A stretch of 64,000 nucleotides of DNA from an uncultured Candidatus Saccharibacteria bacterium (GCA_964621195.1 CAZULJ010000002.1:19665-83664); one strand, 5' to 3'. Positions 23,905-39,397 are shown, counted from the first letter of the stretch. The notes: generated from the sequence alone by a model not told the origin. Translations and numbers: made by a program.

Positions 23905-24861
23905 TTCTTTTCCAATTCCATTTATAAAATCTTTCTCTTTTATTCTTTTCTTTCCCTCTATTTGTAAATTCTTTATCCTCAAAGACATCTTTCTATCCTT
24001 CGTAGAAACAAGAAATTTCTCATCTCTTACATAAAGAGACCCTGGTTTCAAGTTAGAACCAACATTAACAAGTTCAGCTTCATAAATCTTTAGCATCTTT
24101 CCCTGTAAAGATTTTACAGTACTCTCTTGTACAATAAACCAAGCAATTGGCCAAGGAATCATAGCTCTAACTAACCTTTCGATATACTCTGGTTCCATCT
24201 TATCCCAAATAATCTCTGCATTTTCTTTTGAAATATCCTTTTGCCAACAGTAAGTAGCTTTAGAATCCTCTTGTTTTGTAGGTTTAATATCACCATTAAT
24301 CCATCTCTCTAATACATCCCCCAAAACCTCTGCAGATTTTCTTACCAGCCTTTCTCTTAGAGATAGGTTGGTGTCGTTTTCTAAGATTGGTTCTTTGTAT
24401 ACCTCTAAAACATCACCTTCATCTAGACCTTGCGACATTAGCATGATGGAAATACCTGTTTCTTTCTCTCCATCAAGAATAGCCTTTTGTATAGGGACAG
24501 CACCTCTGTATTTAGGAAGAATAGAGAAATGAACATTAACTGCTTTGTACTTAGGATATTCCAAGAAAAACCCTGGTACTATTTCCCCAAATGCTTTACA
24601 TACAATTAGCTCTGGTTTAAAAATCTCTAAAGCTTCAGAATATTTTTCTTTGTTCTTCTCAGTATGAAATACCTTAATACCATTCTCAAGAGCATACTCT
24701 TTAACTTTAGAAGGGGTTAAGATTTGTTTCCTACCAACCGGCTTATCTGTTGTAGTAATTACTCCTACAATATCAAACCTTTTATCTTTATCTAGAGCCT
24801 TAAGTGTCTCCACTGATTCCCAGTCTGTTCCAAGAAAGAGAGTTTTGATTGATTTTTTCAT
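23878..24861 (-). CDS. fmt: methionyl-tRNA formyltransferase
   Basis: N-terminal formyltransferase fold (IVGVITTTDKPVGRKQILTPSKVKEYA...HFSILPKYRGA.PIQ) plus a C-terminal Fmt domain. Confidence 0.85.
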   Translation of the reverse strand: MKKSIKTLFLGTDWESVETLKALDKDKRFDIVGVITTTDKPVGRKQILTPSKVKEYALENGIKVFHTEKNKEKYSEALEIFKPELIVCKAFGEIVPGFFLEYPKYKAVNVHFSILPKYRGAVPIQKAILDGEKETGISIMLMSQGLDEGDVLEVYKEPILENDTNLSLRERLVRKSAEVLGDVLERWINGDIKPTKQEDSKATYCWQKDISKENAEIIWDKMEPEYIERLVRAMIPWPIAWFIVQESTVKSLQGKMLKIYEAELVNVGSNLKPGSLYVRDEKFLVSTKDRKMSLRIKNLQIEGKKRIKEKDFINGIGKELVLQGEKF

Positions 24862-24925
24862 GGCATAATTTTACTTTAATAGTAAGAAAAATGCCACCAA
24901 ATGTAATATAATAGCGATACGAAGC

Positions 24926-25966
24926 ATGAAGATATCAGAATTTAAATACAACTTACCAGAGGAATTAATTGCAAAATATCCTCCTAAGAAAAGAGGTACA
25001 TCGAACTTGTTAGTACTTGATAAAGAGAGTGGAGAAATCACTCATAGGAAGTACTTTAACATTCCAGAATATGTCCAGAATGGAGATATTGTTGTATTAA
25101 ATGAAACTAAAGTAATAAATAGTAGAACATTTTTTTTGACACCAAAAGGTAAGAGAGTGGAAGTACTCTTCTTAGAAAATATTGGAAATGACATATGGTA
25201 TGTCCTCATCGGTAGAGCTAGAAATGTAGAGATTGGAGATATTTTAAAAAATGAAGAAGGGGAGGAAATACAAATACAGGTTAGAGAGAGGAAAGATAAT
25301 GGTTTTGTAGTTCTTTTTACTGAAGGTTCAAGCCAGGTTCTTTTTGATAAATATGGACATACTCCTCTTCCACCATACATGAAAAGAGAAGACGAGAAAA
25401 GTGATAGGGAGAGGTACAATACTGTTTTCTCAAAGATAGAAGGTGCAGTGGCAGCACCAACTGCGAGTCTTAATCTTACAAATGAAATATTAAATGAAAT
25501 AGAGAAGAAAGGAGCAAATATTGTAAAGGTAGAGTTGAGAGTTGGATGGGGAACCTTCGCACCGATAAGAGAGGAAGAAATTGAGAACCACAAGATACAT
25601 ACTGAGTATATAAATGTATCTCAAGATGTGGCAGAAGCTATTAATAGCAGAAAAGGAAAAGTATGGGCATTTGGAACAACAGTGGCAAGAGCACTTGAAA
25701 GTGTAGCATATGAACAGAATGGAAAATATCTTCTTAAAGAATATTCTGGATATACCTCCCTTTACATATATCCTGGATATAAATGGAAAATTGTAGATAA
25801 TCTTGTTACTAATTTCCATATGCCAGATTCTTCTCTAATTCTTCTGGTTAGTTCTTTTGCAGGTAAGGATAATATACAAAGGGCATATGTAGAGGCAATA
25901 AGTAGAAAGTACAAATTCCTTAGCTATGGAGATAGTATGTTAATAGGAGGTAATTTTAGTAAATAA
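24926..25966 (+). CDS. queA: S-adenosylmethionine:tRNA ribosyltransferase-isomerase
   Basis: MKISEFKYNLPEELIAKYP...HTPLPPYM..R.....D...YNTVF....GAVAAPTA.L. Confidence 0.85.
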   Translation: MKISEFKYNLPEELIAKYPPKKRGTSNLLVLDKESGEITHRKYFNIPEYVQNGDIVVLNETKVINSRTFFLTPKGKRVEVLFLENIGNDIWYVLIGRARNVEIGDILKNEEGEEIQIQVRERKDNGFVVLFTEGSSQVLFDKYGHTPLPPYMKREDEKSDRERYNTVFSKIEGAVAAPTASLNLTNEILNEIEKKGANIVKVELRVGWGTFAPIREEEIENHKIHTEYINVSQDVAEAINSRKGKVWAFGTTVARALESVAYEQNGKYLLKEYSGYTSLYIYPGYKWKIVDNLVTNFHMPDSSLILLVSSFAGKDNIQRAYVEAISRKYKFLSYGDSMLIGGNFSK

Positions 25967-25967
25967 A

Positions 25968-27023
25968 GTGATGAATTTAGATATTCTGAAAGAAAAATAT
26001 TTCTTTATGCCAGATGCTACTAGAGGGGCAGTAAGATATTTAACTACAAAACAGCTAAAGGAAACGAATACAGAAGCTATTGTTACCAATACTCTCCATT
26101 TATTGATTCATCCAGGACCTGATGTAATACAGGAATTGGGAGGCATAAAGAAGATGATGGGATGGGATGGGATTGTCTTTACTGACTCTGGTGGTTTCCA
26201 AGTATTTTCGCTAATTCACTCTAAGAAATGGAAAGGTAAAGTACATGAAAATGGTGCTACTTTTAAATCCCCAAGGGAGGGGAATGTATATGAATTAACT
26301 CCTGAGAGTTCAATAGATATTCAAATGAAAATAGGGAGTGATGTTTTAGTTTGTTTGGATGATTGTAGGAAGACGGATTTAAATAGAGATGAAGCAGAGC
26401 AATCTGTAGAGAGGACGATAAAGTGGGCCAAAAGATGTAAAAATCACTTTGAAAAGGAATATGGTGGAACAGTAAGAACAGGAAAACTCCTGACATGTGT
26501 TGTACAGGGAGCGAACTTTCCTGACTTGAGAGAAAAATGCGCGAAAGCATTAGTAGAAATAGGGTTTGATGGCTACAACTTTGGAGGGTTTGTAGTCGAT
26601 AGTGAAGGAAAGCTAGTGGAGGATGAGATGTCTGCTGTAATAGAGAATGTTCCAAAAGATACCATTAGGTATGCAATGGGTGTAGGAAAACCAGAAGATA
26701 TTCTTAAGGCAGCTAAAATAGGTTTTAATCTCTTTGATACAGTATTAGTTACTCGTAATGCAAGACATGGAACACTGTATACATCTGAAGGTGAATTAAG
26801 GATTGGAAATGGTGAAATGGCTTTAGATAAAAGACCAGTAGATCCTAATTGTCATTGTGAATGTTGTTCAAATTATTCAAGAGCATATATTCATCATATG
26901 ATGAAAAATAGTGAGGCAACTGCATTGACTTTGGCAACGATACACAATCTCACACACTATCAGTCTTTAATTGAAAATTTGAATAAAAACATTGCTTCGT
27001 CCCCATTTTTTCTGTACACTTAA
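25968..27023 (+). CDS. tgt: queuine tRNA-ribosyltransferase
   Basis: TDSGGFQVFSL, zinc site CHCECCSNYSRAYIHH; follows queA. Confidence 0.85.
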   Translation: MMNLDILKEKYFFMPDATRGAVRYLTTKQLKETNTEAIVTNTLHLLIHPGPDVIQELGGIKKMMGWDGIVFTDSGGFQVFSLIHSKKWKGKVHENGATFKSPREGNVYELTPESSIDIQMKIGSDVLVCLDDCRKTDLNRDEAEQSVERTIKWAKRCKNHFEKEYGGTVRTGKLLTCVVQGANFPDLREKCAKALVEIGFDGYNFGGFVVDSEGKLVEDEMSAVIENVPKDTIRYAMGVGKPEDILKAAKIGFNLFDTVLVTRNARHGTLYTSEGELRIGNGEMALDKRPVDPNCHCECCSNYSRAYIHHMMKNSEATALTLATIHNLTHYQSLIENLNKNIASSPFFLYT

Positions 27024-27034
27024 TTTAAGTGTAA

Positions 27035-30000
27035 ATGAAAAATACTGCTCTAGTGAGAAAAACAATATGGTTGTTTATTGCCTTGATTGTATCCCTCTTC
27101 TCTTGGGTTTCTCTTGGTCGTGTATTTGCAGCTAACCCTACCCCTGTTCTTGGCTCTGCCGTAGTACTAAATACAGGTAATTACATTTTCTTTACCTCTG
27201 AAATATATGGTGCTAATGTTGTAATCTCAGAACCAGATGCTGGTAATAGCAATATTAGAACTATATCTGGATATGCTTGGTCGCAAGATTTAGGTTGGAT
27301 TAAGTTTTCACAAGGTGAAACTCCTGGAGTATTTGTTGACTACACGACGGGAAATGTTTCCGGCTCTGCCTATGTAATTAATACAGGCAATATATTGGAT
27401 TTCTCAAATTACGGTAGTAATACAGTCGTTGATACTACAACAGGTATATTTTCAGGTTATGTATGGTCGCAAGATATTGGGTGGATAGAGTTTGGAAACA
27501 ATGTCTATGTAGCTGACACTTTGCCACCTACCAATGTTAATACTGTAGCAGGATACACCTCGGATTCAAAAGCGAAAAGTATTACCTCAAGTGAAGTCCT
27601 AGTGTATAACCATACTTTGCCATACTTTGAATGGGAGACTCCAATTGATCCAAGCACACAATCTCATGGTTATCAATCAAGTGGTATTTCTGGATACTAT
27701 GTATATTGGGGACCAAGCTCTACTGCAATACCATCAAGTTCTGGAGTATTCCAAGAGGAAAACTATATAGCACCCTCTGTCTCTGAAAATCAAACTTACT
27801 ATCTTAGAATACAATCAGTTGATAATCACGGGAATATATATACAAATGAAGATCAAGATTACACGTTCTTTGTTTACAAAGCAGACTTACTCAATCCAAC
27901 AAATGTAAAATATATAACTACACCAAGTGGAACATTTAGTAATATAGAGGAGATGTTTTTTAGCTGGCCTAGTGCTGCTAATGTGATCAGTTCTGATGAA
28001 AACGGAATTCTAGGATGGCAGTACAGTCTTAATGGAATAGACAATTGGAAAGGTACACTCACAAGTGAAAGATTTGATTTCGAATACATTCCTTTCGAAG
28101 ATACAACATATATACACTATCTTACTAATGAGAAAGATTCTGCAAATGTAATTATAGGGAACAACATAATCTATTTTAGAAGTATAGATAATGCAGGTAA
28201 TTTCAGTGATTATGTAACAGGAGGGATCTCATACGGAGGTATGGCTCCTCAGTTTCCTACTGAATCAGTAGTGAGTGTATCTCCAGAAACAAATACCTCT
28301 AATGAATTCTCTATAACTTGGCCTAATGCTACTGCACAAGAAGGAAGAACCATACTGCGTTACTACTATATGATTAACACTACACCACCATCGACATACG
28401 AAACTCTCTCTAGTAATAGCTCCCTGTATATCCCAGTAGAAGGCACATCAGTATCTACAAGGATGCTAAGAGGATCTATAAAGGGGGTTAATACAGTATA
28501 CGTTGTTGCGGTTGATAACCAATATGGGTACTCTCAAAGTAATGCGATTACGGGGACATATACTTTGAACAGTACACTGCCAGACCCTATTTTAAACCTT
28601 TCATTGGCAGATACATCTATAAAAAGTGTACAGCTCTGGAGAGCTTCCCTTAACTGGGAAGAACCAGCATATAAAGGAGATGGCGATTTAACATATACAA
28701 TACAAAGAAGCACTGATGGTACGACTTGGGCTACTGTTGGCACTACAAAAGGCCTCTCATATACAGATACTCTACCTGAAAGCAGGCGTTACTATTACCA
28801 GGTAGGAGTCTCAGACTCTACAGATGAAAGTACAAACAATCCTACAATGTCCTCAGTAATTAACTCAATGATACAAGGTCGATATACAGAACCTGCAGAA
28901 ATAGTTTCTAACGTAGTACTTAAAAATATCAGTACAAGACATGCAACAATATATTGGACTACTAACAGAGAATCTGACACCAAAGTTATGTATGGCACCT
29001 CTAGTGGCATGTATTTCAAGGAGGAGGCATATATGTCTGAACAGACCAAAAATCATGAGATAAAGTTGAATAACTTGGAACCAGATACAACATATTACCT
29101 TATTGCAAAATGGACAGATGAAGACGGTAATACTGGTTCTACACAAGAAATATCTTTTAGAACAGACCCAATGCCAAAAGTATTTTCTTCCAAAGTGGAG
29201 AGAGTAGGCCTTGACTATGCAATGGTAACATTCGAGGTGTATGGTGCAACAAAGGCATCTGTTTTGTACGGTAAAAATCTCTCATATACAGATCTAAAAG
29301 AAGTTAATACCTCTGTTACAAGAAGTAAATACTCAGTAATAATCGATGGCTTGCAGGATGGAACAATATATAACTACAAAATACGTTTAACAGATATAGA
29401 AGGATATATTTATGATTCTATAGAAAATCATTCTTTCACAACTCCTCCTAAACCAAATGTTTCAAATGTTCGTATTCAGGAACTAAGGGAAGTTACAAGT
29501 CCTACAGTATTATTTAGTTGGGAATCTAATGCAAAGATAAATTCTATTATCAGATATAGAGAAAATACAGAGGGTTCAGGTGAAATGGATAAAATAGATA
29601 TGGAATATCTCGCAGGTTTACATGAGATGGAAATATCAGGATTAAAATCCGAAACTCAGTACTTAGCATATGTAGAAGGTCTTGATGAGTATGGCAACAA
29701 AGCGATATCAGAACCAATATATTTTACAACTCAAACGGATACTCGTCCTCCAAAGATATTCAATATAAAAGTTGAGGAAGATTTGATGAGTAGAACTGTA
29801 CAAAATGATAGAACCAGAAGTGCACAATTAATACTAACATGGGAAACAGATGAGCCTTCTACAGGTAGGGTCGAATATGGGGAGGGATCCACAGGTATTT
29901 ACTCTTCAAGTTCAAAAATAGACCAAGACTTAAGAACAAAACACTTAGTAATACTTTCTGGTCTTACTCCATCAAAGGTATATAGTTTACAAATAGAATC

Positions 30001-30121
30001 ATCAGATCATTTTGGCAATACGTCAAAATATGGCCCACTAGTATCTGTAACCCCTAAGGCAAGTGCTACAGTTCTTGAAACGGTACTTAATTCAATTTCA
30101 AAAATATTCAGGATATTCTAA
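27035..30121 (+). CDS. giant secreted/surface protein with fibronectin-type-III-like repeats and duplicated SGY(A/V)WSQD(L/I)GWI(K/E)F motifs
   Basis: Signal peptide/TM MKNTALVRKTIWLFIALIVSLFSWVSLGRVFA. Two copies of GYAWSQDLGWIKF / GYVWSQDIGWIEF. Multiple ~100-aa W/Y-containing beta-sandwich-like modules (..TIYWTTNRESDTKVMYG.. and ..VTFEVYGATKASVLYGKN.. are typical FN3/purple-acid-phosphatase-N-like). Confidence 0.6.
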   Translation: MKNTALVRKTIWLFIALIVSLFSWVSLGRVFAANPTPVLGSAVVLNTGNYIFFTSEIYGANVVISEPDAGNSNIRTISGYAWSQDLGWIKFSQGETPGVFVDYTTGNVSGSAYVINTGNILDFSNYGSNTVVDTTTGIFSGYVWSQDIGWIEFGNNVYVADTLPPTNVNTVAGYTSDSKAKSITSSEVLVYNHTLPYFEWETPIDPSTQSHGYQSSGISGYYVYWGPSSTAIPSSSGVFQEENYIAPSVSENQTYYLRIQSVDNHGNIYTNEDQDYTFFVYKADLLNPTNVKYITTPSGTFSNIEEMFFSWPSAANVISSDENGILGWQYSLNGIDNWKGTLTSERFDFEYIPFEDTTYIHYLTNEKDSANVIIGNNIIYFRSIDNAGNFSDYVTGGISYGGMAPQFPTESVVSVSPETNTSNEFSITWPNATAQEGRTILRYYYMINTTPPSTYETLSSNSSLYIPVEGTSVSTRMLRGSIKGVNTVYVVAVDNQYGYSQSNAITGTYTLNSTLPDPILNLSLADTSIKSVQLWRASLNWEEPAYKGDGDLTYTIQRSTDGTTWATVGTTKGLSYTDTLPESRRYYYQVGVSDSTDESTNNPTMSSVINSMIQGRYTEPAEIVSNVVLKNISTRHATIYWTTNRESDTKVMYGTSSGMYFKEEAYMSEQTKNHEIKLNNLEPDTTYYLIAKWTDEDGNTGSTQEISFRTDPMPKVFSSKVERVGLDYAMVTFEVYGATKASVLYGKNLSYTDLKEVNTSVTRSKYSVIIDGLQDGTIYNYKIRLTDIEGYIYDSIENHSFTTPPKPNVSNVRIQELREVTSPTVLFSWESNAKINSIIRYRENTEGSGEMDKIDMEYLAGLHEMEISGLKSETQYLAYVEGLDEYGNKAISEPIYFTTQTDTRPPKIFNIKVEEDLMSRTVQNDRTRSAQLILTWETDEPSTGRVEYGEGSTGIYSSSSKIDQDLRTKHLVILSGLTPSKVYSLQIESSDHFGNTSKYGPLVSVTPKASATVLETVLNSISKIFRIF

Positions 30122-32265
30122 TGAAAAATAGTGAATTAATAGTTATTAAAAATATTAATAAGAGTTTTCCTGTTGGTGATAGGATAAATACAGTATTAAA
30201 AGATATATCTTTTAATATTAACAAAGGAGAGTTAATTACAATATTCGGCCCTTCTGGATGTGGTAAGTCCACACTACTACATATAATAATGGGTATTGAA
30301 AGGCCAGAATCTGGTTGTATAAAAATCTTCGGTATTGACTTATGGAAGATGAATGCAGATGACAGATCTGATATGAGGAAAAGAAACATAGGTGTTGTAT
30401 ACCAACAACAGAATTGGATTAAATCTCTTAGTATAATAGAGAATCTGGCCTTAACCTCCCAGTTACTTGGTTTCAATAAAAAGGACTCTATAAAAAAAGC
30501 AGAAGAAAGTATCTTATTAGTAGGTCTTAATGGATATCGAGATAAATATCCCTCCGAGCTATCTTCCGGTGAACAACAAAAAGCAGGTCTTGCAAGGGCT
30601 ATTATATCTAATCCGCAGGTTATAATAGCCGATGAACCTACGGGAAATCTAGATACAAAGAGTGGATATGATGTTTTAAATATACTGCAAAAGCTTGTGA
30701 GCCAAGGTAAGACAGTTGTTTTGGTTACGCACAATCCAGAATATCTTGAACATTCTGATAGGGTTGTGATTATGAAAGATGGGAATATATTAGATATTGT
30801 AACTAAAACAGGAAACACAAGAGATATTGTTGAAAGAAAACTCTTAGAAGATACGCCAAAACATACTAATGGCAATGATAGTCCTAATATTAAAATAGTT
30901 GAAGAAAATGACTATCCTGAGAGAAGTATCTTTACAAGATTTCAGCAAAATATCTCACTAATAATAAAATTCTTCATAGAATCTACCATTGTATTTATAA
31001 ACATCCTATTACTAAAATTTAATAAAGGAGAGATCCTAGATAGGTATGTAGGTAGTAAAAACAAAAAATTCTCAAAAGAAATAGGAAGCATCTATCTAAC
31101 GGAACTCTCTCTCAAGAATCTCTTCTATAAAAAATTCAGAACAATAATTACAATACTAGGAGTAGGTTTAGGGACTGGATTTGTATTACTTTTGCTTTCA
31201 CTTGGGTATGGCTTGGAAAAGGTAATTCTTGATGAAATAACAGAAGTAAAGGATCTTAAACAATTAGAAGTATTTCCAAAAGTAGGAAGTCTACTAACCC
31301 TTGATCAAGAACTCATAGAGAAAATTAAAAATGTTCCAGGAGTAGAGAAAGTATATAAAGTTAAGAGTATACCTGGCAGAATAAACTATGAAGGCTCAAG
31401 TACTGATGTTGTTTTGTATGGTATTGAAAGTGGCTATTTAGAGGATAGCTCAACAAAAAAAATAGAAGGAGAATATATTATTAAAACTTCCGATAATATG
31501 GATATAATGCTTAATAATGAATACCTGAATGTTCTTGGTCTTAAAAAAGATGAAATTGTTGGTAAGAAAATTGAGCTAGAAGTTGTAAAAACTATACCCT
31601 CAGATGAAACAAAGCAAGAGCCCCTCTCTTTAAAGATTGTAGGAATAGTAGAAGATGATTCCCCCCCAGTGGCATATATGAAAATAGAAGAAGTTATAAA
31701 ATACTCTACACAGGATTACTCACAAGCAACAGTAATTATTAAGGATGATTCTGTAATAGATAATGTCAGAAGGCAAATAGAATCCCTTGGCCTAGAATCC
31801 TTCTCTATCATGGATACAATAACCCAAGTAGAAACACTATTTACATATGTAAGGTATGGATTACTTCTCTTTGGAATAATAGCATTTAGTGTTGCATTTT
31901 TAGGAATGGTAAACACTTTAGTAGTATCACTCCTAGAAAGAACTAGGGAAGTAGGCCTTATGAAAATAGTGGGTATGAAGAAAGATGAGATAATGACAAT
32001 CTTCATTACCGAATCTATGTTCATTGGCTTCCTTGGAGGATTAATAGGTATTGCAGCTGGTTATGTAGGAGGTCTTTTCGTCTCTCTACTTGTATATATA
32101 CTATCGATATCTCGAGGAGTTGATTTTGTTAATATTTCATACATACCTTGCTCTGTTGTTATTCTTGTTGTCGTATGTACTACACTTCTTGGATTCTTTA
32201 CGGGGTTGTATCCTGCTAAAAGAGCAGTAAAGATACCTCCTCTTAATGCTATGAGGTACGAATAA
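30121..32265 (+). CDS. fused ABC transporter ATP-binding protein / FtsX-like permease (MacB/LolCDE-like)
   Basis: Walker A GPSGCGKST, signature LSSGEQQK, Walker B VIIADEPTGNLD; C-terminal 4-TM FtsX-like permease with a large extracytoplasmic loop; start overlaps the upstream stop (TAATG). Confidence 0.8.
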   Translation: MKNSELIVIKNINKSFPVGDRINTVLKDISFNINKGELITIFGPSGCGKSTLLHIIMGIERPESGCIKIFGIDLWKMNADDRSDMRKRNIGVVYQQQNWIKSLSIIENLALTSQLLGFNKKDSIKKAEESILLVGLNGYRDKYPSELSSGEQQKAGLARAIISNPQVIIADEPTGNLDTKSGYDVLNILQKLVSQGKTVVLVTHNPEYLEHSDRVVIMKDGNILDIVTKTGNTRDIVERKLLEDTPKHTNGNDSPNIKIVEENDYPERSIFTRFQQNISLIIKFFIESTIVFINILLLKFNKGEILDRYVGSKNKKFSKEIGSIYLTELSLKNLFYKKFRTIITILGVGLGTGFVLLLLSLGYGLEKVILDEITEVKDLKQLEVFPKVGSLLTLDQELIEKIKNVPGVEKVYKVKSIPGRINYEGSSTDVVLYGIESGYLEDSSTKKIEGEYIIKTSDNMDIMLNNEYLNVLGLKKDEIVGKKIELEVVKTIPSDETKQEPLSLKIVGIVEDDSPPVAYMKIEEVIKYSTQDYSQATVIIKDDSVIDNVRRQIESLGLESFSIMDTITQVETLFTYVRYGLLLFGIIAFSVAFLGMVNTLVVSLLERTREVGLMKIVGMKKDEIMTIFITESMFIGFLGGLIGIAAGYVGGLFVSLLVYILSISRGVDFVNISYIPCSVVILVVVCTTLLGFFTGLYPAKRAVKIPPLNAMRYE

Positions 32266-32282
32266 ATTTTAAATAAATAGTT

Positions 32283-33137
32283 ATGAAATTAACAAGATTA
32301 GAAAAAATTTTAATAGTTTTAATAGTTGGTATATTAGCTAGTACCTTTGTAATAACTAAGGTTCTTGCAGAACAAAGTACTGGTACTCCAAACTCTGAAG
32401 TCAATTCTGTGATCAAGGATGTATACGAGAATCTAGTTAATTTAGAGTATGGATCCGAGACAGGATCTAATGGCCCTATGTGGAACAGAATAATATCTTC
32501 TAGCTTATGGGTACCAGAGGGTACTATTACAGAGGCAGATGTAGTAAATGGTAAAACATTTTTTAATAGTAGTAGAGTAGAAAAAACCGGTACTTTAGAT
32601 TTTCCAAAATACGAAGATATGTCTTTACAAGCAAAAGACTATAGAGATTCAAGTGCCTCTACTACTTGGAGCTCTTGGACCTTGACAAGTGGTGCTGCTA
32701 CAACAGGTGTATACAAAGATAATAGGACGGGGTTATATTGGAGTGCAATGCTGGGTTCTGCAAATTCATTTACAAACGAATTTACAATAGCATCGTGCCC
32801 CTTTTTTACAACGGTACCTAGGGGTGATTATAACGGTGGTAATGTAAATTGTGGTAATGCTATAAATACCTGTGCAACTCTATCCCTTGATTTAAATGGT
32901 GACTCAACTCCAGAAACTAAATGGTACTTACCAACACAAGCAGAACTTATGCAGGCATATTTAAATGGTATAAACTTATCTACCAATACTACATGGGTAA
33001 CAGGGAATAATTTTTGGTCCAGTACCGAGAATCAGTCTACTAATACGTACGCATGGAACGCCTACCTTAACGGTGGCTATACCGCTATCAATAATAAGAT
33101 TACAAGTTATTCAGTTCGTTGTGTCCACAGGGATTGA
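32283..33137 (+). CDS. DGR target (variable) protein: pilin-like N-terminal hydrophobic segment plus C-terminal DUF1566 (Lcl-C / C-type-lectin-fold) domain carrying the VR
   Basis: N-terminus MKLTRLEKILIVLIVGILAS. C-terminus WYLPTQAELMQAYLNG....FWSST..........AWNAYLNGGY.....K.....VRCVHRD matches the DUF1566 pattern (W.LPT..EL..L...YWSS........aw.v.f..G........VRCVR). The last 41 codons are duplicated downstream as the TR. Confidence 0.8.
   Translation: MKLTRLEKILIVLIVGILASTFVITKVLAEQSTGTPNSEVNSVIKDVYENLVNLEYGSETGSNGPMWNRIISSSLWVPEGTITEADVVNGKTFFNSSRVEKTGTLDFPKYEDMSLQAKDYRDSSASTTWSSWTLTSGAATTGVYKDNRTGLYWSAMLGSANSFTNEFTIASCPFFTTVPRGDYNGGNVNCGNAINTCATLSLDLNGDSTPETKWYLPTQAELMQAYLNGINLSTNTTWVTGNNFWSSTENQSTNTYAWNAYLNGGYTAINNKITSYSVRCVHRD
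33012..33133 (+). repeat. DGR variable repeat (VR), 122 bp, at the 3' end of the target CDS
   Basis: 108/122 identity to 33511..33632 with no indels; all 14 mismatches occur at TR adenines. Confidence 0.85.
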
Positions 33138-33510
33138 TAGGAGGGTTCTAGTATAAGTATATAGGGTTGTCCGCCCTGTCTGTAATTGATATCCCATTAA
33201 ACTTGTTTTGCTGAACCCGATTAGCCTAGCAGTGAAAATGTAGAACACAGTCTTAAATCTATAGGTCTCTAGGTCGCTGAACTCTTGGAGAGTATAATAT
33301 CTGCTAGGCAATTTAAATATTGAAATGTCTATTTTGATATGTGATTATGACTTATGCAGGATCTTACATTCTCAACCTTGTTTTAGGCTCTGGTTTGTAA
33401 GGGGGGCGTAATATATAATCCTACTTGCTATACCCATTGGGTACTAAGATTCAAAAAGTCTTTTTATAAAATCAGACTTTTGGTGAGTAATATAAATTAG
33501 CAAGTTTCCG

Positions 33511-33632
33511 TTTTGGTCCAGTACCGAGAATCAGAATAATAATACGAACGCATGGAACACAAACCTTAACAATGGAAATACCAATAACAATAATAAGATT
33601 ACAAGTTATTCAGTTCGTTGTGTCCACAGGGA
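33511..33632 (+). repeat. DGR template repeat (TR), 122 bp, Asn-codon (AAY)-rich
   Basis: Non-coding copy of the VR. In target frame it reads FWSSTENQNNNTNAWNTNLNNGNTNNNNKITSYSVRCVHR; VR differs only where the TR has A. Confidence 0.85.
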
Positions 33633-33641
33633 GAATATATT

Positions 33642-33992
33642 ATGCCTCATGCAAGTAATACTTTATATTTAACACTATATAAATTTATACAGTATTTGTA
33701 TTGTGTTGTTCGCAATTTCCCCAAAGAGTACAAATATACACTTGGTGCAGATATTTTAAATCTCTCTTGGAAATCTCTTGATTATATTATTGTCGCTAAT
33801 TCGGTTAGTAACAAGGAGAAGAAAAAATATCTTGAAAAGGCAGTAGCTGTGTTTCTTAGTCTTAAATATAGATTAAGGCTCTCTAGTGATTTAAAACTGT
33901 TTAACAATAAGAGGTATGCGTATGTTCTAGAAAACTATCTTGAAATAGAAAAAATATTAAACGGTTGGCTTGCTTGGTCTAAAAGACAGTAG
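33642..33992 (+). CDS. avd: DGR accessory variability determinant (Avd; four-helix-bundle / 23S-rRNA-IVS protein family)
   Basis: ~116 aa; FPKEYKYTLGADILNLSWKSL..I..ANS......K.YLEKA......L.Y.LRLS.DLK resembles Avd / S23 ribosomal-IVS proteins (FPKeEkygLtsQi.Raa.Si.sNIaEG); start taken at the MPHASN ATG just after the TR. Confidence 0.7.
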   Translation: MPHASNTLYLTLYKFIQYLYCVVRNFPKEYKYTLGADILNLSWKSLDYIIVANSVSNKEKKKYLEKAVAVFLSLKYRLRLSSDLKLFNNKRYAYVLENYLEIEKILNGWLAWSKRQ

Positions 33993-35162
33993 ATTATTCT
34001 GAGGTTCGATATATTCTTTCAGTTTACCAAAGTGTTTGTTGTAGAGGTTGTTTCTTAGTAGGTAAGAATTACTCCATTTCAAGTGTCCAAATGTAGAATT
34101 AATGCTTGTACAAAGAGCCTTAATATCTTTTTGAGTGATATTTTCCCCTAGAGGTATTCTTTCTTCCATACAGAGCTTTCTGTTTATTAGGTATCCTTTG
34201 TTAAAGTAGTATAGCTTTCTTTCTAAATTTGCTAAAACCCTGTTTCTACACAGTGTGAATCTTGGTTTAACTATGTATCCCACAAAGTCTATTCCTTGGT
34301 ATACACTTCCATATTTTGTTTTGTTGCTCTTGATTTTTAATCTAAGCCTTTTTTGTAGGAATAACTCTACCTTTCTTTTGATAATTTCTAAGGTATCTAT
34401 ATCTTCTGAGAGAAATAGCATATCGTCGGCGTATCTCAGATAGTATTTTACCTCTAGTTTCCTTTTAATATATTGATCTACTTCATTTAGATATAGATTT
34501 GCGAAGAATTGCGAGGTTAAGTTACCAATCGCAAGTCCTTTACCTTTCGGTATTGTGAACAGGCTTTTATTCTTTGGAAGGCTACCTATTATTTTGAAAC
34601 TGCCTTTCTTTTTATAATTACTACATGGGTCATGGAATATAATTTTTGAGATTAGCCATATCAAATCTGCCTTGTCTTTTTTGTTGAAATTAAGGCGGTT
34701 TATTTCCTTTTTGAGAATTCTATAAAGTATTTCCTTGTCTATTGAATAAAAAAAGCTCTCAATATCGAGTTTAAGATAGTACGCCTGTTTGGTATTGTTA
34801 TGAGTAATTTTTTTTATAAACCGTTTCAATCTCCTTATGCCCAGGAGAGCTCCTTTGTTTTTTCTACAAGCAAGAGAGTCGTATATAAATTTTTTGTCAA
34901 TAGGTCTTTCAATATGATTAATAAGCAGGTGGTGTACAATCCTGTCTCTAAAACTTGCCGCAAAGATCTCTCTTGTAGTGGGATAGGTAATTACAAAGCA
35001 CTGAGACTTACCTATTGTATACCTTCTGTTAAGAAGTTCTTCATGGAGAATGTAAAGATTGTTTTCAAGAGATTCTTCAAACTCAGAAGCATATTTGCAA
35101 TTTCTTTTTCCTTTTCTGCATGCAGAGTATGCTTGAAGAAGTGATGATAGTTCAAAAACCAT
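33957..35162 (-). CDS. DGR-type reverse transcriptase
   Basis: RT domains with YADDMLF (motif 5) and IGNLTSQFFANLYLN (motif 4 with SQ, as in DGR RTs, instead of the QG of group II intron/retron RTs). 401 aa. Adjacent to TR and avd but on the opposite strand, overlapping the avd 3' end by 36 bp. Confidence 0.8.
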   Translation of the reverse strand: MVFELSSLLQAYSACRKGKRNCKYASEFEESLENNLYILHEELLNRRYTIGKSQCFVITYPTTREIFAASFRDRIVHHLLINHIERPIDKKFIYDSLACRKNKGALLGIRRLKRFIKKITHNNTKQAYYLKLDIESFFYSIDKEILYRILKKEINRLNFNKKDKADLIWLISKIIFHDPCSNYKKKGSFKIIGSLPKNKSLFTIPKGKGLAIGNLTSQFFANLYLNEVDQYIKRKLEVKYYLRYADDMLFLSEDIDTLEIIKRKVELFLQKRLRLKIKSNKTKYGSVYQGIDFVGYIVKPRFTLCRNRVLANLERKLYYFNKGYLINRKLCMEERIPLGENITQKDIKALCTSINSTFGHLKWSNSYLLRNNLYNKHFGKLKEYIEPQNNLLSFRPSKPTV

Positions 35163-35623
35163 ATCGCGATATATTATATAAATGGTATAGAGTAAGTATC
35201 TTGGGCCTAATAATACTTGGGAACCTATGCAAAATTATAGTGAATCTGCAATTCTTAACTATGAAGATCTTAACAGTTCAAGATTGTTACATCTGATATG
35301 AAGAGTTTTTAAAAGACATACAGATATATTACAGGAAAAAGTTGAAATAAACTCTTCCCGATTGTTGTTAACTATGTTGATTTGTATATTAGGGGCAATA
35401 GCTAGAAAGTAAGCTCTAAAAATGATATCATTACAAAGTCCTTGATAACCATGTTTTGTGGTTGGTAAAGAAATATTAAAGAATAATTGATTAATGAACA
35501 TTTTGAAAAATATATATACTAAAAAATATATACTACAAGAACTCTTTGATGTAGGAGATCGTAATTAGATCTTCCTATTTTTCTTCACCAAAAAAGGATG
35601 AATAAATTTTTAACAATACTCTT

Positions 35624-37144
35624 ATGGAGTTAATTATTGGTATTGTTGCAACACTCGTCGGAGGTATTTCTGTGTTTTCCTACCTCAAGTATGTACAGAA
35701 GTGGGTAAATATTAAGGATATTCCCGAGGAAGAAGTAGAGAGAGTTGCAAACAAGATAATCGGTAACAAGATAGCACAAACCGAGAAAGAATTAGAAGAA
35801 AACAAAAGAAGGGCAGAAGATAGACTCCGCGAACTTCGAAAAGAAACTCAGGAGCATGAGGAACTTCTTCTTGATAGGGAGAAGAAATTAAATGAGAGAA
35901 CTAAGATGCTCGATCAAAAAAGTGAAGAACTCGAGAGTGCTTCTGAGAATGTAAAGAAAATGCAAAGAGGTCTTGAAAATACAAGGAATCAATTGAAAGA
36001 AGAATTGGAAAGGATTTCAGGATTAACTCAGGATGAAGCAAGACAGAAACTTATGAGTCAGGTTGATGAGGATATCAAAAACTATGAAGCTAAGAAAATT
36101 AGGCAGGCAGAGAAAAGAGTAGAAGAAGTAGCAGAGGAGAAGGCAAGGCATATTCTTGTTGAATCTATGCAAAGAATTGCAACTGACTATGTAGGTGAAA
36201 CTACTACGTCTTCTATTAAAATTGAAGATGATAAAGTAAAGGGTAGAGTTATTGGTAAAGAGGGTAGAAATATCAGGGCATTTGAAAAGCTTACCGGTGT
36301 TGACGTTATTGTCGATGAATCTCCAAATACAATAGCTCTTTCATCTTTTGATCCTTTGAGAAGAGAGATTGCTTCTGTTGCACTTACCAAATTGATTGGT
36401 GATGGAAGAATTCATCCAGGATCTATCGAAGAGGCTATTAGAAAGGCAAAGAATGAGATTTCAATTGAAATAAAAAAGAATGGTCAAATTCTTGCAGAAG
36501 AAGCTGATTGGCCAGGTATAGATATCGGATTGTTAAAGCTTATTGGTAAGATGAAATATAGAACTAGTTATGGGCAGTCCTTAATGTCTCACACTATCGA
36601 AATGATGAGAATGGGAGAAGTTCTAGCTGCAGAAGTTGGAGCTGATGTAGGTCTTGTTAAAAAGGCATGTCTATTACATGATGTTGGTAAGGTATTAACT
36701 CATAAGATTGAGAGTCCTCATCATCATATTTCTGGTCAGGTTGCTCGTAAATATGGTTTAGATGAGAAATTGGTGAATGCAATTGAAGCTCATCACTTGG
36801 ATATTGAACCACAATCTGTTGAAGCTGTATTGGTATATATTGCGGATGCAATCTCTGGTGCAAGACCAGGTGCAAGAAAAGATAGCTATGAACAGTATAT
36901 TCAAAGGATTGAATCTTTAGAGAATGTTGCAAAGGAATTGGCTGGAGATAAGATTGAAGAGGTGTTTGCTATTAAGGCTGGTAGAGAATTAAGAATAATT
37001 GTTAAACCTGCTTTGATATCTGACGATGAAATGACTGTACTTGCAAAGGATATCGCGTCTAGTATTGAGAAGACTCAGAATTATCCTGGTAATGTAGAAG
37101 TTACATTAATCAGAGAAACTAGAGCTATTGAGGTCGCAAGATAG
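35624..37144 (+). CDS. rny: ribonuclease Y
   Basis: N-terminal TM, coiled coil, KH domain (GRVIGKEGRNIRAFE..TGVD), HD domain (HSIEVA-like ...LLHDVGK...HH). Confidence 0.85.
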   Translation: MELIIGIVATLVGGISVFSYLKYVQKWVNIKDIPEEEVERVANKIIGNKIAQTEKELEENKRRAEDRLRELRKETQEHEELLLDREKKLNERTKMLDQKSEELESASENVKKMQRGLENTRNQLKEELERISGLTQDEARQKLMSQVDEDIKNYEAKKIRQAEKRVEEVAEEKARHILVESMQRIATDYVGETTTSSIKIEDDKVKGRVIGKEGRNIRAFEKLTGVDVIVDESPNTIALSSFDPLRREIASVALTKLIGDGRIHPGSIEEAIRKAKNEISIEIKKNGQILAEEADWPGIDIGLLKLIGKMKYRTSYGQSLMSHTIEMMRMGEVLAAEVGADVGLVKKACLLHDVGKVLTHKIESPHHHISGQVARKYGLDEKLVNAIEAHHLDIEPQSVEAVLVYIADAISGARPGARKDSYEQYIQRIESLENVAKELAGDKIEEVFAIKAGRELRIIVKPALISDDEMTVLAKDIASSIEKTQNYPGNVEVTLIRETRAIEVAR

Positions 37145-37191
37145 GTAACTTCTAGTAGTCATTACTACAGGGCAATGATTAGAGTTATTAA

Positions 37192-37220
37192 AAGGGAGGA
37201 AAATAAATCCTCCCTTTTTG
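37192..37220 (+). terminator. rho-independent terminator after rny
   Basis: GGGAGGA-AAATAAA-TCCTCCC hairpin followed by TTTTTG. Confidence 0.65.
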
Positions 37221-37588
37221 TTCTTTCAGAAAGGCTTTTGATCAAATATTGTCCTAGAAAAATAGGGGGAGTTGAAAACGTTAGAATATATTGTAGACAT
37301 CCAAAAACGCTGGTAGAAAAGCTTTTTCTGGTAGTTTGCTCATGAAACCTTGTGATATCAATATGAATTGCTTCACGGAGTTAATATCTTATTCACAAAT
37401 ATTACCCAATCTTGAGGGGGAAACTCTTGACAGTAAAAGCTTTTTAGTAGCTACGGATGAAAAATCCTATAACAATAAGGTTCTTGATGTGACCCTTTAT
37501 TTACGCTATTTTAATCATGTGGTAGCACGAATCGGATGATATCAGGATTCGTGGCACCCGTATCTCTAAGAAAGGAGGTTTTAAACAC

Positions 37589-37861
37589 ATGTTAAAGAAA
37601 GATTTAGTAGAGAGAGTTGCAAAAGCTGCAGGTCTTACTAAGAAGCAAGCTGGTGAGGCTGTTGATGCATTATTTGATGCAATCACAGGATCTCTTAAGG
37701 CTGGTGATCCTGTTTTACTAACAGGATTCGGTAAGTTCGAAGTAAGAGAGAGAGCTGCTAGAACAGGTATCAATCCTAAGACTCTTGAGAAGATCAAGTT
37801 ACCAGCATCCAAGGTTCCTGCCTTTAAAGCTGGAAAAGCTCTTAAGGTTGCTGTTAAGTAA
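37589..37861 (+). CDS. hup: DNA-binding protein HU
   Basis: [26 protein letters not shown]...[22 protein letters not shown]...I...A...P.FKAGK.LK; AGGAGG RBS 8 nt upstream. Confidence 0.9.
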
Positions 37862-38005: not shown

Positions 38006-39397
38006 GTGAGGAAATTTTTTATTCCAAGTAAAGAGAATAGGTACAAGCCATACTTGCTTAGAAAAGCTGCGCTATCTGTTTACACTATTCTTCTTCTCGT
38101 TGTAAATATGTTTGGTGGTCTACTTGGTATCCCAGAAGCAATGGCAAGCTCGATAACTTCTGCCAACATTATTCAGCTCACAAATCAACAAAGAGCAGCC
38201 GCAGGTCTCAATACTCTTAATTCTGACTCAAGGCTTGCTGCAGCGGCTCTAGCGAAGGCTAACAACATGTTTGAACAGCAGTACTGGGATCACTTCGGGC
38301 CCAATGGGGAATCTCCTTGGATGTTTATCTCTGATGCTGGTTATCAGTATGTATATGCCGGAGAAAATCTTGCAAAAGGCTTTAGAACTGCAGAGGGTGT
38401 TCACGAAGCTTGGATGGCCAGTCCAACCCACAAGGAGAATATTATGAGTGGGAATTACAAAGATATTGGAGTTGCAGTTGTAGAAGGAGTATTACTCGGT
38501 AAAGAAACTATTCTTGTTGTTCAGATGTTTGGAAACTTAACGACACAAACTTTCAAAGCAGAAACACCTGTTAAAGCAGAAACTACAAAACCATCTACAC
38601 CGAAAGCAAATATTGTAGATACCGGAGAAATAAAATCGATAAGTATTACAAGTCCAAAGGTTGGGGATTTACTTAATGATGCAAATGTAAATATCCATGG
38701 TACTACAGAAAATGTATCAGGATCATACTCAGTAGAAATATTAAATCACAACACTGTAGTTGGCGAGGTAGGAAGTACTGGAAAAGAGTGGGAGTATGAC
38801 AAAGGATCTGATTGGGAAGAGGGAGAACAGAAAATTGTTGCTCAGATAAAGGGCACAGATGTTCGTTCTTCAGAAGTCAGTTTCGTAGTAGACTCTACCC
38901 CTGCTGAGATAGAGGCACAATCTATAACGGTGAAGAGAACTGAAACAGAATATGAATTAAGTTTTGTAATACCGGAAGAAGCAAAATCTATACAATTGGT
39001 GACAGGAGACAAGACCTTTGATCTTGTTATCGATGAAGAGGGTTTTGCAGTTCTTGGCATATCCAAGAATGATATAGGAGAGAAATCTGTGTTAATAATT
39101 TCTGACAAAGCAGGTAATATTTCAGAGATTGATATCTCTGAATACTTTATGGACGAAGATGAGTCAGTAGTATATACCCCAGATCTTACCCTTTGGGTTC
39201 GTAATATGGTTGGTACTACAGATGGAATTAGCTTGGCAATTGTCTCCTTTGTCTTTATACTTTTAAGCATAGAGGTGTATGTATACTGGAAGAAAGGATT
39301 GTTAGGAAAGAATGCTGGTGGCTTGTTTACACTAGGTGCATGGTGGTTAATTATTTTAGTAGGTGTCTTTAAAGGATTCGGAGGAGTTATTAATTAA
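38006..39397 (+). CDS. membrane-anchored CAP/SCP (YkwD-like) domain protein with beta-rich middle region and C-terminal TM
   Basis: LTNQQRAAAGL..L..D..L...A...A..M......DHFGPNGESPW......GY.Y.YAGENLA.GF.TAEGVHEAWM.SPTHKENI....Y..IGVAV is the CAP/SCP signature; TM helices at both ends. Confidence 0.65.
   Translation: MRKFFIPSKENRYKPYLLRKAALSVYTILLLVVNMFGGLLGIPEAMASSITSANIIQLTNQQRAAAGLNTLNSDSRLAAAALAKANNMFEQQYWDHFGPNGESPWMFISDAGYQYVYAGENLAKGFRTAEGVHEAWMASPTHKENIMSGNYKDIGVAVVEGVLLGKETILVVQMFGNLTTQTFKAETPVKAETTKPSTPKANIVDTGEIKSISITSPKVGDLLNDANVNIHGTTENVSGSYSVEILNHNTVVGEVGSTGKEWEYDKGSDWEEGEQKIVAQIKGTDVRSSEVSFVVDSTPAEIEAQSITVKRTETEYELSFVIPEEAKSIQLVTGDKTFDLVIDEEGFAVLGISKNDIGEKSVLIISDKAGNISEIDISEYFMDEDESVVYTPDLTLWVRNMVGTTDGISLAIVSFVFILLSIEVYVYWKKGLLGKNAGGLFTLGAWWLIILVGVFKGFGGVIN

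Follow-up and report, generated by a model that had tools for sequence, protein, structure and literature searches.

Comparison with Described Systems

Diversity-generating retroelements (DGRs) are unusually common in CPR bacteria (CPR, candidate phyla radiation); the variable repeat (VR) of a DGR usually encodes the C-terminal end of the target protein or a part close to it. Here, we analyzed a DGR and the genes next to it in a stretch of 64,000 nucleotides from an uncultured Candidatus Saccharibacteria bacterium (GCA_964621195.1, CAZULJ010000002.1:19665-83664). This whole stretch is referred to as the window, and positions are counted from its first letter. Three consecutive genes at positions 27035–33137 encode a large protein built mainly of fibronectin type III (FN3)-like modules (the stalk), an ATP-binding cassette (ABC) transporter of MacB type, and the DGR target, which has a C-type lectin (CLec) fold. 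Together with the adjacent DGR, these genes probably form one cell-surface module of a Dojkabacteria (WS6)-like CPR bacterium, in which the lectin would be docked on the stalk and the ABC transporter would act on the stalk.

Among described systems, the LdtA DGR of Legionella pneumophila (PMC5758913) resembles this locus in having an Lcl_C/DUF1566 target with the VR at its extreme C-terminus, together with a template repeat (TR), an Avd-type accessory gene and a reverse transcriptase (RT), and in that the diversified surface faces outward. LdtA is, however, a lipoprotein on the outer membrane of a diderm, whereas no lipobox is present and no outer membrane is expected here, and the target gene of the window, unlike that of LdtA, is linked in the genome to the genes of an FN3 stalk and an ABC transporter of MacB type. 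In the type V pilus tip-adhesin DGRs of Bacteroides, as outlined in 10.1101/2024.11.15.621889, a variable binder is likewise carried on an appendage encoded next to it; according to that outline the pilus is polymerised by strand exchange, in contrast to the single tandem-FN3 polypeptide with an ABC transporter found here, and both phylum and envelope differ. The Mtd protein of the Bordetella phage BPP-1 (PMC2408619) shares the variable domain of CLec fold and the adenine mutagenesis and is located at the end of a fiber, but is a phage structural protein, whereas the target here is chromosomal and cellular and encoded between housekeeping genes.

CPR targets of DGRs typically show no recognizable transmembrane or conserved domain, and their localization and function were left open (Roux et al., 2021; PMC8144416). 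The DGR in the window resembles the CPR 'clade 2' DGRs (Paul et al., 2017; Roux et al., 2021) in being cellular, chromosomal and from Patescibacteria with a CLec-type target; unlike typical CPR targets, the proteins described here carry signal peptides and have a conserved set of genomic partners. Taken alone, the DGR of the window is an ordinary representative of the CPR clade, and its target is of DUF1566 class like LdtA. In the literature searched for DGRs together with FtsX, MacB, permeases or fibronectin and CPR bacteria, no paper connecting DGRs with FtsX/MacB transporters and no account of this module was found; a prior mention may exist in Paul et al. (2017).

The ABC transporter shares with MacAB-TolC and LolCDE the domain order of nucleotide-binding domain (NBD), first transmembrane segment (TM1), periplasmic core domain and TM2–4, and MacB structures were its best matches; unlike in those systems, no MacA or TolC genes were found nearby, the neighboring proteins lack a lipobox, and the equivalog cut-offs were missed. 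FtsEX complexes have EnvC, PcsB, CwlO or RipC as partners and represent mechanotransmission by type VII ABC proteins. The two systems appear alike in that a permease of the FtsX family, which has an extracytoplasmic domain, shares its locus with the gene of a protein outside the membrane on which it may act. They differ in that the extracytoplasmic domain here is a MacB_PCD of about 200 aa and not the small one of FtsX, ATPase and permease form one protein, an FN3 array takes the place of a coiled-coil hydrolase activator as partner, and the FtsE cut-off was missed.

The locus offers a concrete context for a large class of CPR targets, namely Sec-exported lectins associated with a long FN3 stalk and an ABC transporter of MacB type. 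These associations rest on gene neighborhood and natural fusions, and stalk relatives occur in hundreds of species-level genomes. The module predicts contacts between lectin and W-domain (a widespread, unnamed N-terminal domain defined below) and between stalk and ABC transporter, as well as visible surface fibers of about 30–40 nm, and may represent a new use of type VII ABC mechanotransmission.

Organization of the Locus

The following features were identified in the window (ORF, open reading frame; AF2, AlphaFold2):

27035..30121, plus strand: stalk protein gene (ORF, 1028 aa)
27035..27133, plus strand: stalk signal peptide or anchor, residues 1–33 (hydropathy of residues 4–33; predicted helix 4–30)
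27122..27529, plus strand: W-domain, stalk residues 30–165 (two repeats of about 60 aa)
27530..30058, plus strand: array of eight FN3/Ig-like modules (AF2 secondary structure, Pfam, Foldseek)
30071..30115, plus strand: stalk C-terminal amphipathic helix, residues 1013–1027 (AF2 helix, low confidence)
30121..32265, plus strand: gene for the fused ABC transporter of MacB architecture (ORF, 714 aa; Pfam)
32283..33137, plus strand: DGR target gene, Lcl_C/DUF1566 lectin (ORF, 284 aa; Pfam)
33012..33133, plus strand: VR, target residues 243–284, the last 42 codons
33511..33632, plus strand: TR, forming a repeat pair with the VR
33618..33992, plus strand: bAvd accessory gene (Pfam bAvd, 1.3e-17)
33957..35162, minus strand: DGR RT, 401 aa (Pfam RVT_1, 1.1e-19; YADD and IGNLTSQ motifs)

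The original prediction had described three consecutive plus-strand genes with a TAATG stop/start overlap between the first two and a gap of 18 bp before the target gene, and had named a fused MacB-like ABC transporter, FN3-like modules in the 1028-aa protein and a duplicated W-rich motif without a named domain. All of these were recovered except for the gap, which was counted as 17 nt between ABC stop and target start. The overlap is formed by the stalk stop codon TAA (30119–30121) and the ABC start codon ATG (30121–30123) and is kept in close relatives. The tgt gene, which ends at 27023, is also separated from the stalk gene by only 11 nt; tight packing is therefore not specific to the three-gene set and is weak evidence in a compact genome. 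The cluster is flanked by housekeeping genes, with fmt, queA and tgt upstream and the RNase Y gene downstream. A consensus scan of positions 24000–36000, which carries little information in this AT-rich CPR genome, gave 41 promoter-like sites compared to 51 expected from shuffled sequences, and detected no terminator at the junctions of the three genes. The evidence throughout is comparative and computational, with ad hoc ORF calling and hidden Markov models (HMMs).

Conservation of the Stalk-ABC-DGR Arrangement

A scan of GTDB with one genome per species detected 334 genomes with a stalk relative, and 76 loci from the best 80 matches were kept; the neighborhoods were annotated with our own ORF calls and iterated HMMs. 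In 63 of the 70 loci with at least 1 kb of downstream sequence, the next gene downstream of the stalk gene encodes a MacB-like ABC protein; in three more, the ABC gene is located directly upstream. Stalk and ABC genes were thus adjacent in 66/70 informative species loci, and three of the four exceptions were paralogs in a single metagenome-assembled genome (MAG). A DGR RT was located at most 3 kb from the stalk gene in 23 of the 39 loci with at least 5 kb of upstream sequence; by chance, such proximity would be expected in less than 1%, assuming at most about one DGR per genome of about 1 Mb. The recurrence beside DGRs in related genomes that bears on the original prediction was therefore found, with a DGR adjacent in about 60% of the loci and gene order varying. 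Judged across species, it is the conservation of arrangement that exceeds chance.

The protein search yielded 92 stalk homologs, and the full-length orthologs among them share as little as 38% identity. Their source names include WS6/Dojkabacteria, Microgenomates, Woesebacteria and Daviesbacteria; organism names on MAG records are unreliable. The neighborhoods of five increasingly distant homologs all contained stalk and MacB-like ABC genes, accompanied by an Lcl_C gene and in most cases a DGR, in changing order. With the identity of their stalk to that of the window, they were organized as follows:

L001, 74% identity: order as in the window
L003/L004, 67% identity: stalk-ABC-Lcl_C in entirely different genomic surroundings; TR and VR retained, Avd reduced to a remnant of 57 aa, RT missing
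L005, 57% identity: Lcl_C upstream of the stalk; no DGR
L006, 44% identity: Lcl_C-Avd-RT upstream of the stalk
L007, 38% identity: whole DGR divergent and upstream; ABC split into ATPase and permease

The decayed DGR of L003/L004 (15409–15714) has 12 of 13 TR/VR mismatches at A and no RT within 10 kb; this cassette is either served in trans by an RT from elsewhere or a fossil. In L007 (5961–7105), a gene for an AbiEii-like toxin and two small ORFs, one of them similar to DUF6922, are located between the RT and the Lcl_C target genes.

Separate and Fused Lectin Domains

Stalk homologs of about 1500–1600 aa were found to carry an N-terminal FGE-sulfatase domain (Pfam) in place of the W-domain. 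FGE-sulfatase is a classic fold of DGR targets. When TR/VR pairs were accepted if at least 80% of the mismatches were at template adenines, a VR was detected inside the stalk homolog in at least 12 loci (L034, L047, L055, L056, L059–L061, L066, L070, L071, L073, and L079; for example L055:9040–9161), at residues of about 345–485 at the C-terminal end of the FGE-sulfatase domain. In the loci with this fused architecture, avd, TR and RT are located directly upstream on the same strand. The fused VR is atypical because it is internal in a protein of about 1550 aa, with more than 1000 residues downstream of it. Based on this comparison of gene neighborhoods, the variable lectin-fold domain is either a separate neighbor of the stalk (architecture A, as in the window) or joined to the stalk N-terminus (architecture B). 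The RTs fall into two clades corresponding to architectures A and B, with the RT of the window in the separate-target group, and each DGR lineage was therefore inherited together with its module.

The type of stalk head was also associated with the presence of a free lectin gene. Among 39 fully flanked loci, a separate Lcl_C gene was found in 13/13 with a W-domain head on the stalk compared to 1/26 without it. The sole exception, L058, encodes a stand-alone W-domain protein of 203 aa with an LPETG anchor immediately before the Lcl_C gene. This 203-aa protein has a signal peptide, and the region (L058:61–1630) is located 6 kb upstream of a DGR-less stalk gene whose head is of FGE-sulfatase type. 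L058 was also the only case of a W-domain outside stalk genes in 83 stalk-centered loci, from which it follows that W-domain genes are a rare background.

A reciprocal metagenome scan starting from Lcl_C homologs showed a W-domain protein in 20 of the 28 loci of at least 8 kb and a MacB-like permease in 12 of the 28. These Lcl_C-centered loci include non-stalk W-domain proteins (195–890 aa) as well as a short stalk (668–723 aa) with a split ABC transporter, lectin and DGR. No fusion of W-domain and Lcl_C was found among 149 W-domain representatives. The co-occurrence of W-domain and free lectin supports, without proving it, a role of the W-domain as a docking site that replaces covalent fusion.

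The Stalk Protein and its W-Domain

The stalk N-terminal hydrophobic segment ends in (R/K)(V/I)FA, a motif kept in the alignment of both architectures and likely to be a signal peptidase I site at which the protein would be cleaved. The stalk contains no Cys at all, and hence no lipobox Cys after the signal sequence. The W-domain follows, each repeat of which ends in SGY(A/V)WSxD(L/I)GWIxF; the copies of this motif are SGYAWSQDLGWIKF at residues 78–91 and SGYVWSQDIGWIEF at residues 140–153, and its G, S, D, G, W, and F columns were invariant in 48 orthologs. Modeled alone with AF2, the W-domain reached a pLDDT of 90.5 and a pTM of 0.84, and no fold match was found in PDB at E ≤ 1e-3. The W-rich repeat was not assigned to any Pfam or NCBIfam family, the sole match being a sub-threshold one to DUF7038.

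A profile search of 1.84 billion representatives detected the W-domain in 5877 representative clusters, 883 of them at E ≤ 1e-10. It was nearly always N-terminal, right after the signal peptide, in proteins of 130–2600 aa, and where the rest of the protein was recognizable (ten proteins scanned) it consisted of Ig, FN3, PKD, or Big domains. Some short W-domain proteins end in an LPETG sortase signal (for example P0130 and P0143), and another small one (P0104) is located on a 2.4-kb contig without useful context. The W-domain is thus a widespread, unnamed N-terminal domain.

The part of the stalk common to all homologs is the FN3/Ig-like array, in which Pro-rich linkers join eight modules (approximate residues 166–283, 288–402, 408–512, 517–617, 622–710, 715–803, 808–899, and 906–1008). 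Pfam matches at residues 628–710, 817–897, and 967–998 were to fn3 (40.4 bits, cut-off 25) and Pur_ac_phosph_N (53.8 bits, cut-off 30), both FN3-like. An AF2 model of the stalk built with 48 orthologs had a mean pLDDT of 85 and was all-beta, with a terminal helix at 1013–1027; its top Foldseek matches were generic tandem FN3/Ig arrays only (titin/MyBP-C, gp130, and contactin; E down to 2e-21). The terminal helix shows an L..V...L...F.F pattern and an invariant F1025 in all stalk homologs and is a candidate docking element.

A type I secreted giant adhesin (LapA/RTX type) was considered for the stalk and rejected, as the protein has an N-terminal signal peptide, its ABC partner is of FtsX/MacB type and not ABC_membrane, and no membrane fusion or outer membrane protein is encoded nearby. 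Among the homologs, two to four tandem stalk paralogs (1400–2350 aa) with one shared ABC transporter were observed in L022, L030, L039, L062, and L068 (for example L068:7604–22259). Other homologs reach 2500–3200 aa, and some have DUF2341 or LamG-like heads.

The ABC Transporter

In the 714-aa ABC protein, Pfam detected ABC_tran (26–174), MacB_PCD (341–555), and FtsX (583–707), and hydrophobic segments were found at residues 339–370, 573–606, and 624–699. This gives a topology of an NBD (about 1–240), TM1 (about 339–370), a periplasmic core domain (341–555), and TM2–4 of the FtsX domain (583–707). The Walker A and Walker B motifs and the H-loop are intact, and the closest solved structures by PDB sequence matches were those of MacB (5nik, 5gko, and 5lil). 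With an NBD, a four-TM FtsX permease and a large core domain between TM1 and TM2, the protein is a MacB-type (type VII) ABC protein.

Assignment to a described member of this type was tried and rejected in each case. The NCBIfam MacB equivalog model gave 239.6 bits compared to a cut-off of 966, and no MacA/HlyD- or TolC-like genes were found in the window neighborhood or in related loci, and the protein was therefore not placed in the MacAB-TolC family. For FtsEX, the FtsE model was not reached (188.9 vs. 264.85) and the extracytoplasmic domain matches MacB_PCD. For LolCDE, the LolD model was not reached (191 vs. 307.75) and stalk and lectin have no lipobox Cys. In addition, no two-component system adjoins the ABC gene in the window neighborhood or in related loci.

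The Lectin Target and DGR Activity

The target showed a match to Pfam Lcl_C (PF07603, DUF1566) at residues 143–281 (49.6 bits, cut-off 34.9), and nearly all of its 126 homologs contain PF07603. Hydropathy indicated a signal peptide at residues 1–29 (..KVLA|EQ) without a lipobox Cys after it. Between the signal peptide and the CLec domain, the alignment showed a family-conserved region (AEQSGxSP...WNRI). In a local HMM analysis this N-terminal region and the CLec domain always occurred together, fragments aside, and as a query alone it gave no matches in a word-indexed database.

The DGR is complete, with a TR/VR pair, RT and accessory gene, and its VR encodes the C-terminal end of the CLec-fold target. 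The TR has 49 A in 122 nt, and each of the 14 mismatches between TR and VR falls on an adenine of the TR. The bAvd start is more likely the ATG at 33642, just after the TR, than the TTG at 33618, which is located inside it. Among nine close target relatives, 21/42 VR columns varied compared to 26/242 columns elsewhere. Two related loci from independent samples, L166 and L167, were 98.3–100% identical, with 100% identity of TR, avd and spacer, compared to only 86% identity of the VR, where 16 of the 17 differing positions were at TR adenines. Furthermore, the TR was 97.5% conserved in strains that were about 92% identical overall. By this pattern, the DGR is active in natural populations, the VR varying while the TR is fixed.

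The RT was called as two fragments of 154 and 177 aa in L166 (7675–8881) but as an intact protein of 401 aa in the 99.8% identical L167 (7675–8880), although the VRs of the two loci differ strongly. The split call could reflect recent inactivation or an assembly error. Compared to L166/L167, window positions 26283–37800 showed 99.7% identity in tgt, 96% in the stalk gene, 97–98% in the lectin gene outside the VR, 87–88% in the ABC gene, 87% in avd, 89% in the RT gene, and 75% downstream; this mosaic divergence suggests recombination between strains within the module.

In several loci a second Lcl_C copy, together with apparent pieces of 77 and 143 aa, was located directly upstream of the stalk gene, besides the DGR-linked copy. 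Second copies were found at L015:8243–9948, L101:12973–14678, and L104:1408–3116; they may be non-diversified paralogs or pseudogenes. Directly after the VR, no stable hairpin fold was detected in DNA (z = +1.3). In a relative with 98% identity (P0001) the contig stops before the target gene, and P0366, a protein identical to the target in the window, gave no match when looked up by its exact sequence.

Interpretation and Alternative Explanations

In the module that we consider probable, the secreted Lcl_C lectin would be held by non-covalent docking to the W-domain, which forms the stalk's N-terminal end, and the DGR would re-tune what the stalk binds. Host or prey cell surfaces would be the most plausible ligands in an epibiotic lifestyle, since CPR bacteria are thought to be epibionts. 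MacB-type transporters act on substrates already outside the cytoplasm, and both stalk and lectin carry Sec-type signals, so that the ABC transporter is unlikely to be their exporter. Without transporting either protein, it would act from the membrane on the outside-facing stalk, which it might hold or actuate in an FtsEX-like manner through its periplasmic core domain of about 200 aa, perhaps by way of the stalk C-terminal helix. Alternatively, it might extract the N-terminal hydrophobic segment of the stalk from the membrane, as LolCDE does with lipoproteins. The predicted signals thus make an anchor, actuator or membrane extractor more likely than an exporter.

The original prediction had proposed a dedicated export and display apparatus whose adhesive tip is diversified by the DGR. 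Of this, a functional module with a DGR lectin was upheld, whereas export became doubtful in view of the Sec signals and the lack of MacA and TolC nearby; the adhesive tip and the display role remain putative. The alternative raised with it, that the DGR target was inserted next to an unrelated ABC operon, is contradicted by the synteny and by the stalk fusions: the conserved stalk-ABC pair with a DGR and the sister lineage with the fused domain point to a functional module and not to an unrelated lectin insertion. A more far-reaching version, in which stalk, type VII ABC motor and lectin would constitute a hitherto unrecognized, ATP-coupled surface organelle of Microgenomates/Dojkabacteria-type CPR bacteria for tunable host-cell capture, with a single-chain FN3 fiber held and actuated or released, a lectin cap reprogrammed by the DGR, and the W-domain as a socket of new fold, is quite unlikely on the present evidence.

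Several observations weigh against the module that we consider probable. In about 40% of the stalk-ABC loci neither a DGR nor a lectin was seen, which makes the lectin an optional addition on which the core function of stalk and ABC transporter does not depend. Non-stalk W-domain proteins occur beside Lcl_C without an ABC gene, which indicates that the ABC transporter goes with the stalk body rather than with lectin or W-domain. The W-domain may also be a general binding or anchoring module and not a specific lectin dock, because it is present on thousands of other proteins. The Fisher test of the W-domain/Lcl_C co-occurrence (p = 1.7e-9) ignores shared ancestry, and the scans covered the best 80 of 334 matches for the stalk gene and the best 80 of 328 for Lcl_C. 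Finally, cleavage at (R/K)(V/I)FA would decide which stalk end is the distal one; if the N-terminal anchor were uncleaved, the variable domain would be near the membrane and not at a distal tip.

Some of these observations would fit an arrangement in which only stalk and ABC transporter cooperate and Lcl_C is an independent variable receptor, its DGR merely being part of a shared island of surface-protein genes. Besides the loci without DGR or lectin, the lectin's own signal peptide, its variable position relative to the stalk-ABC pair, and the 8 of 28 long Lcl_C-centered loci without a W-domain or stalk gene agree with this explanation. It is nevertheless rather unlikely, as the stalk of the sister lineage itself contains a variable CLec domain, W-domain and free Lcl_C co-occur almost perfectly (including L058 and the non-stalk W-domain proteins) against a background in which W-domain genes are rare (one non-stalk ORF in 83 loci), and Lcl_C stays beside the stalk after loss of the RT (L003/L004) and without a DGR (L005). 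The ABC transporter could instead be a resistance or efflux pump of MacB/BceAB style for peptides, toxins or lipids, with the FN3 protein as extracellular accessory or sensor and the lectin in a non-adhesive role, for example as a variable toxin or phage binder. In line with a pump, a role in resistance is common in the MacB family, MacB gave the best NCBIfam and PDB matches, and the Walker A and Walker B motifs and the H-loop are intact. However, the MacB equivalog score (240 bits) is far under its cut-off of 966, no MacA/HlyD, TolC or two-component gene was found next to it in the window or related loci, the strict 1:1 pairing with an FN3 protein of 1000–3000 aa fits a display structure better, and the heads swapped between stalks are all of binding type (W-domain, FGE-sulfatase CLec, and DUF2341/LamG), which makes a pump very unlikely. 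That the adjacency is a by-product of genome compaction, bringing together three unrelated co-directional genes, could be argued from tgt ending 11 nt upstream of the stalk gene and from the housekeeping genes that flank the cluster. This possibility is effectively refuted by the synteny data, the arrangement being kept across dozens of species with different flanks and through rearrangements, and by the existence of the fusion proteins.

Genomic Surroundings

The module was found to be shifted as a block relative to fmt-queA-tgt (window 24926–27034): it follows tgt in the window and in L001 and is located upstream of fmt in L005 and L006. In L001, queA is absent, and two small ORFs separate tgt from the stalk gene. 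About 3 kb downstream of the module, the window encodes a protein of the CAP (cysteine-rich secretory protein) family (463 aa; 38006–39397), which is conserved at the corresponding position in L006 and L166 and is probably secreted as well.

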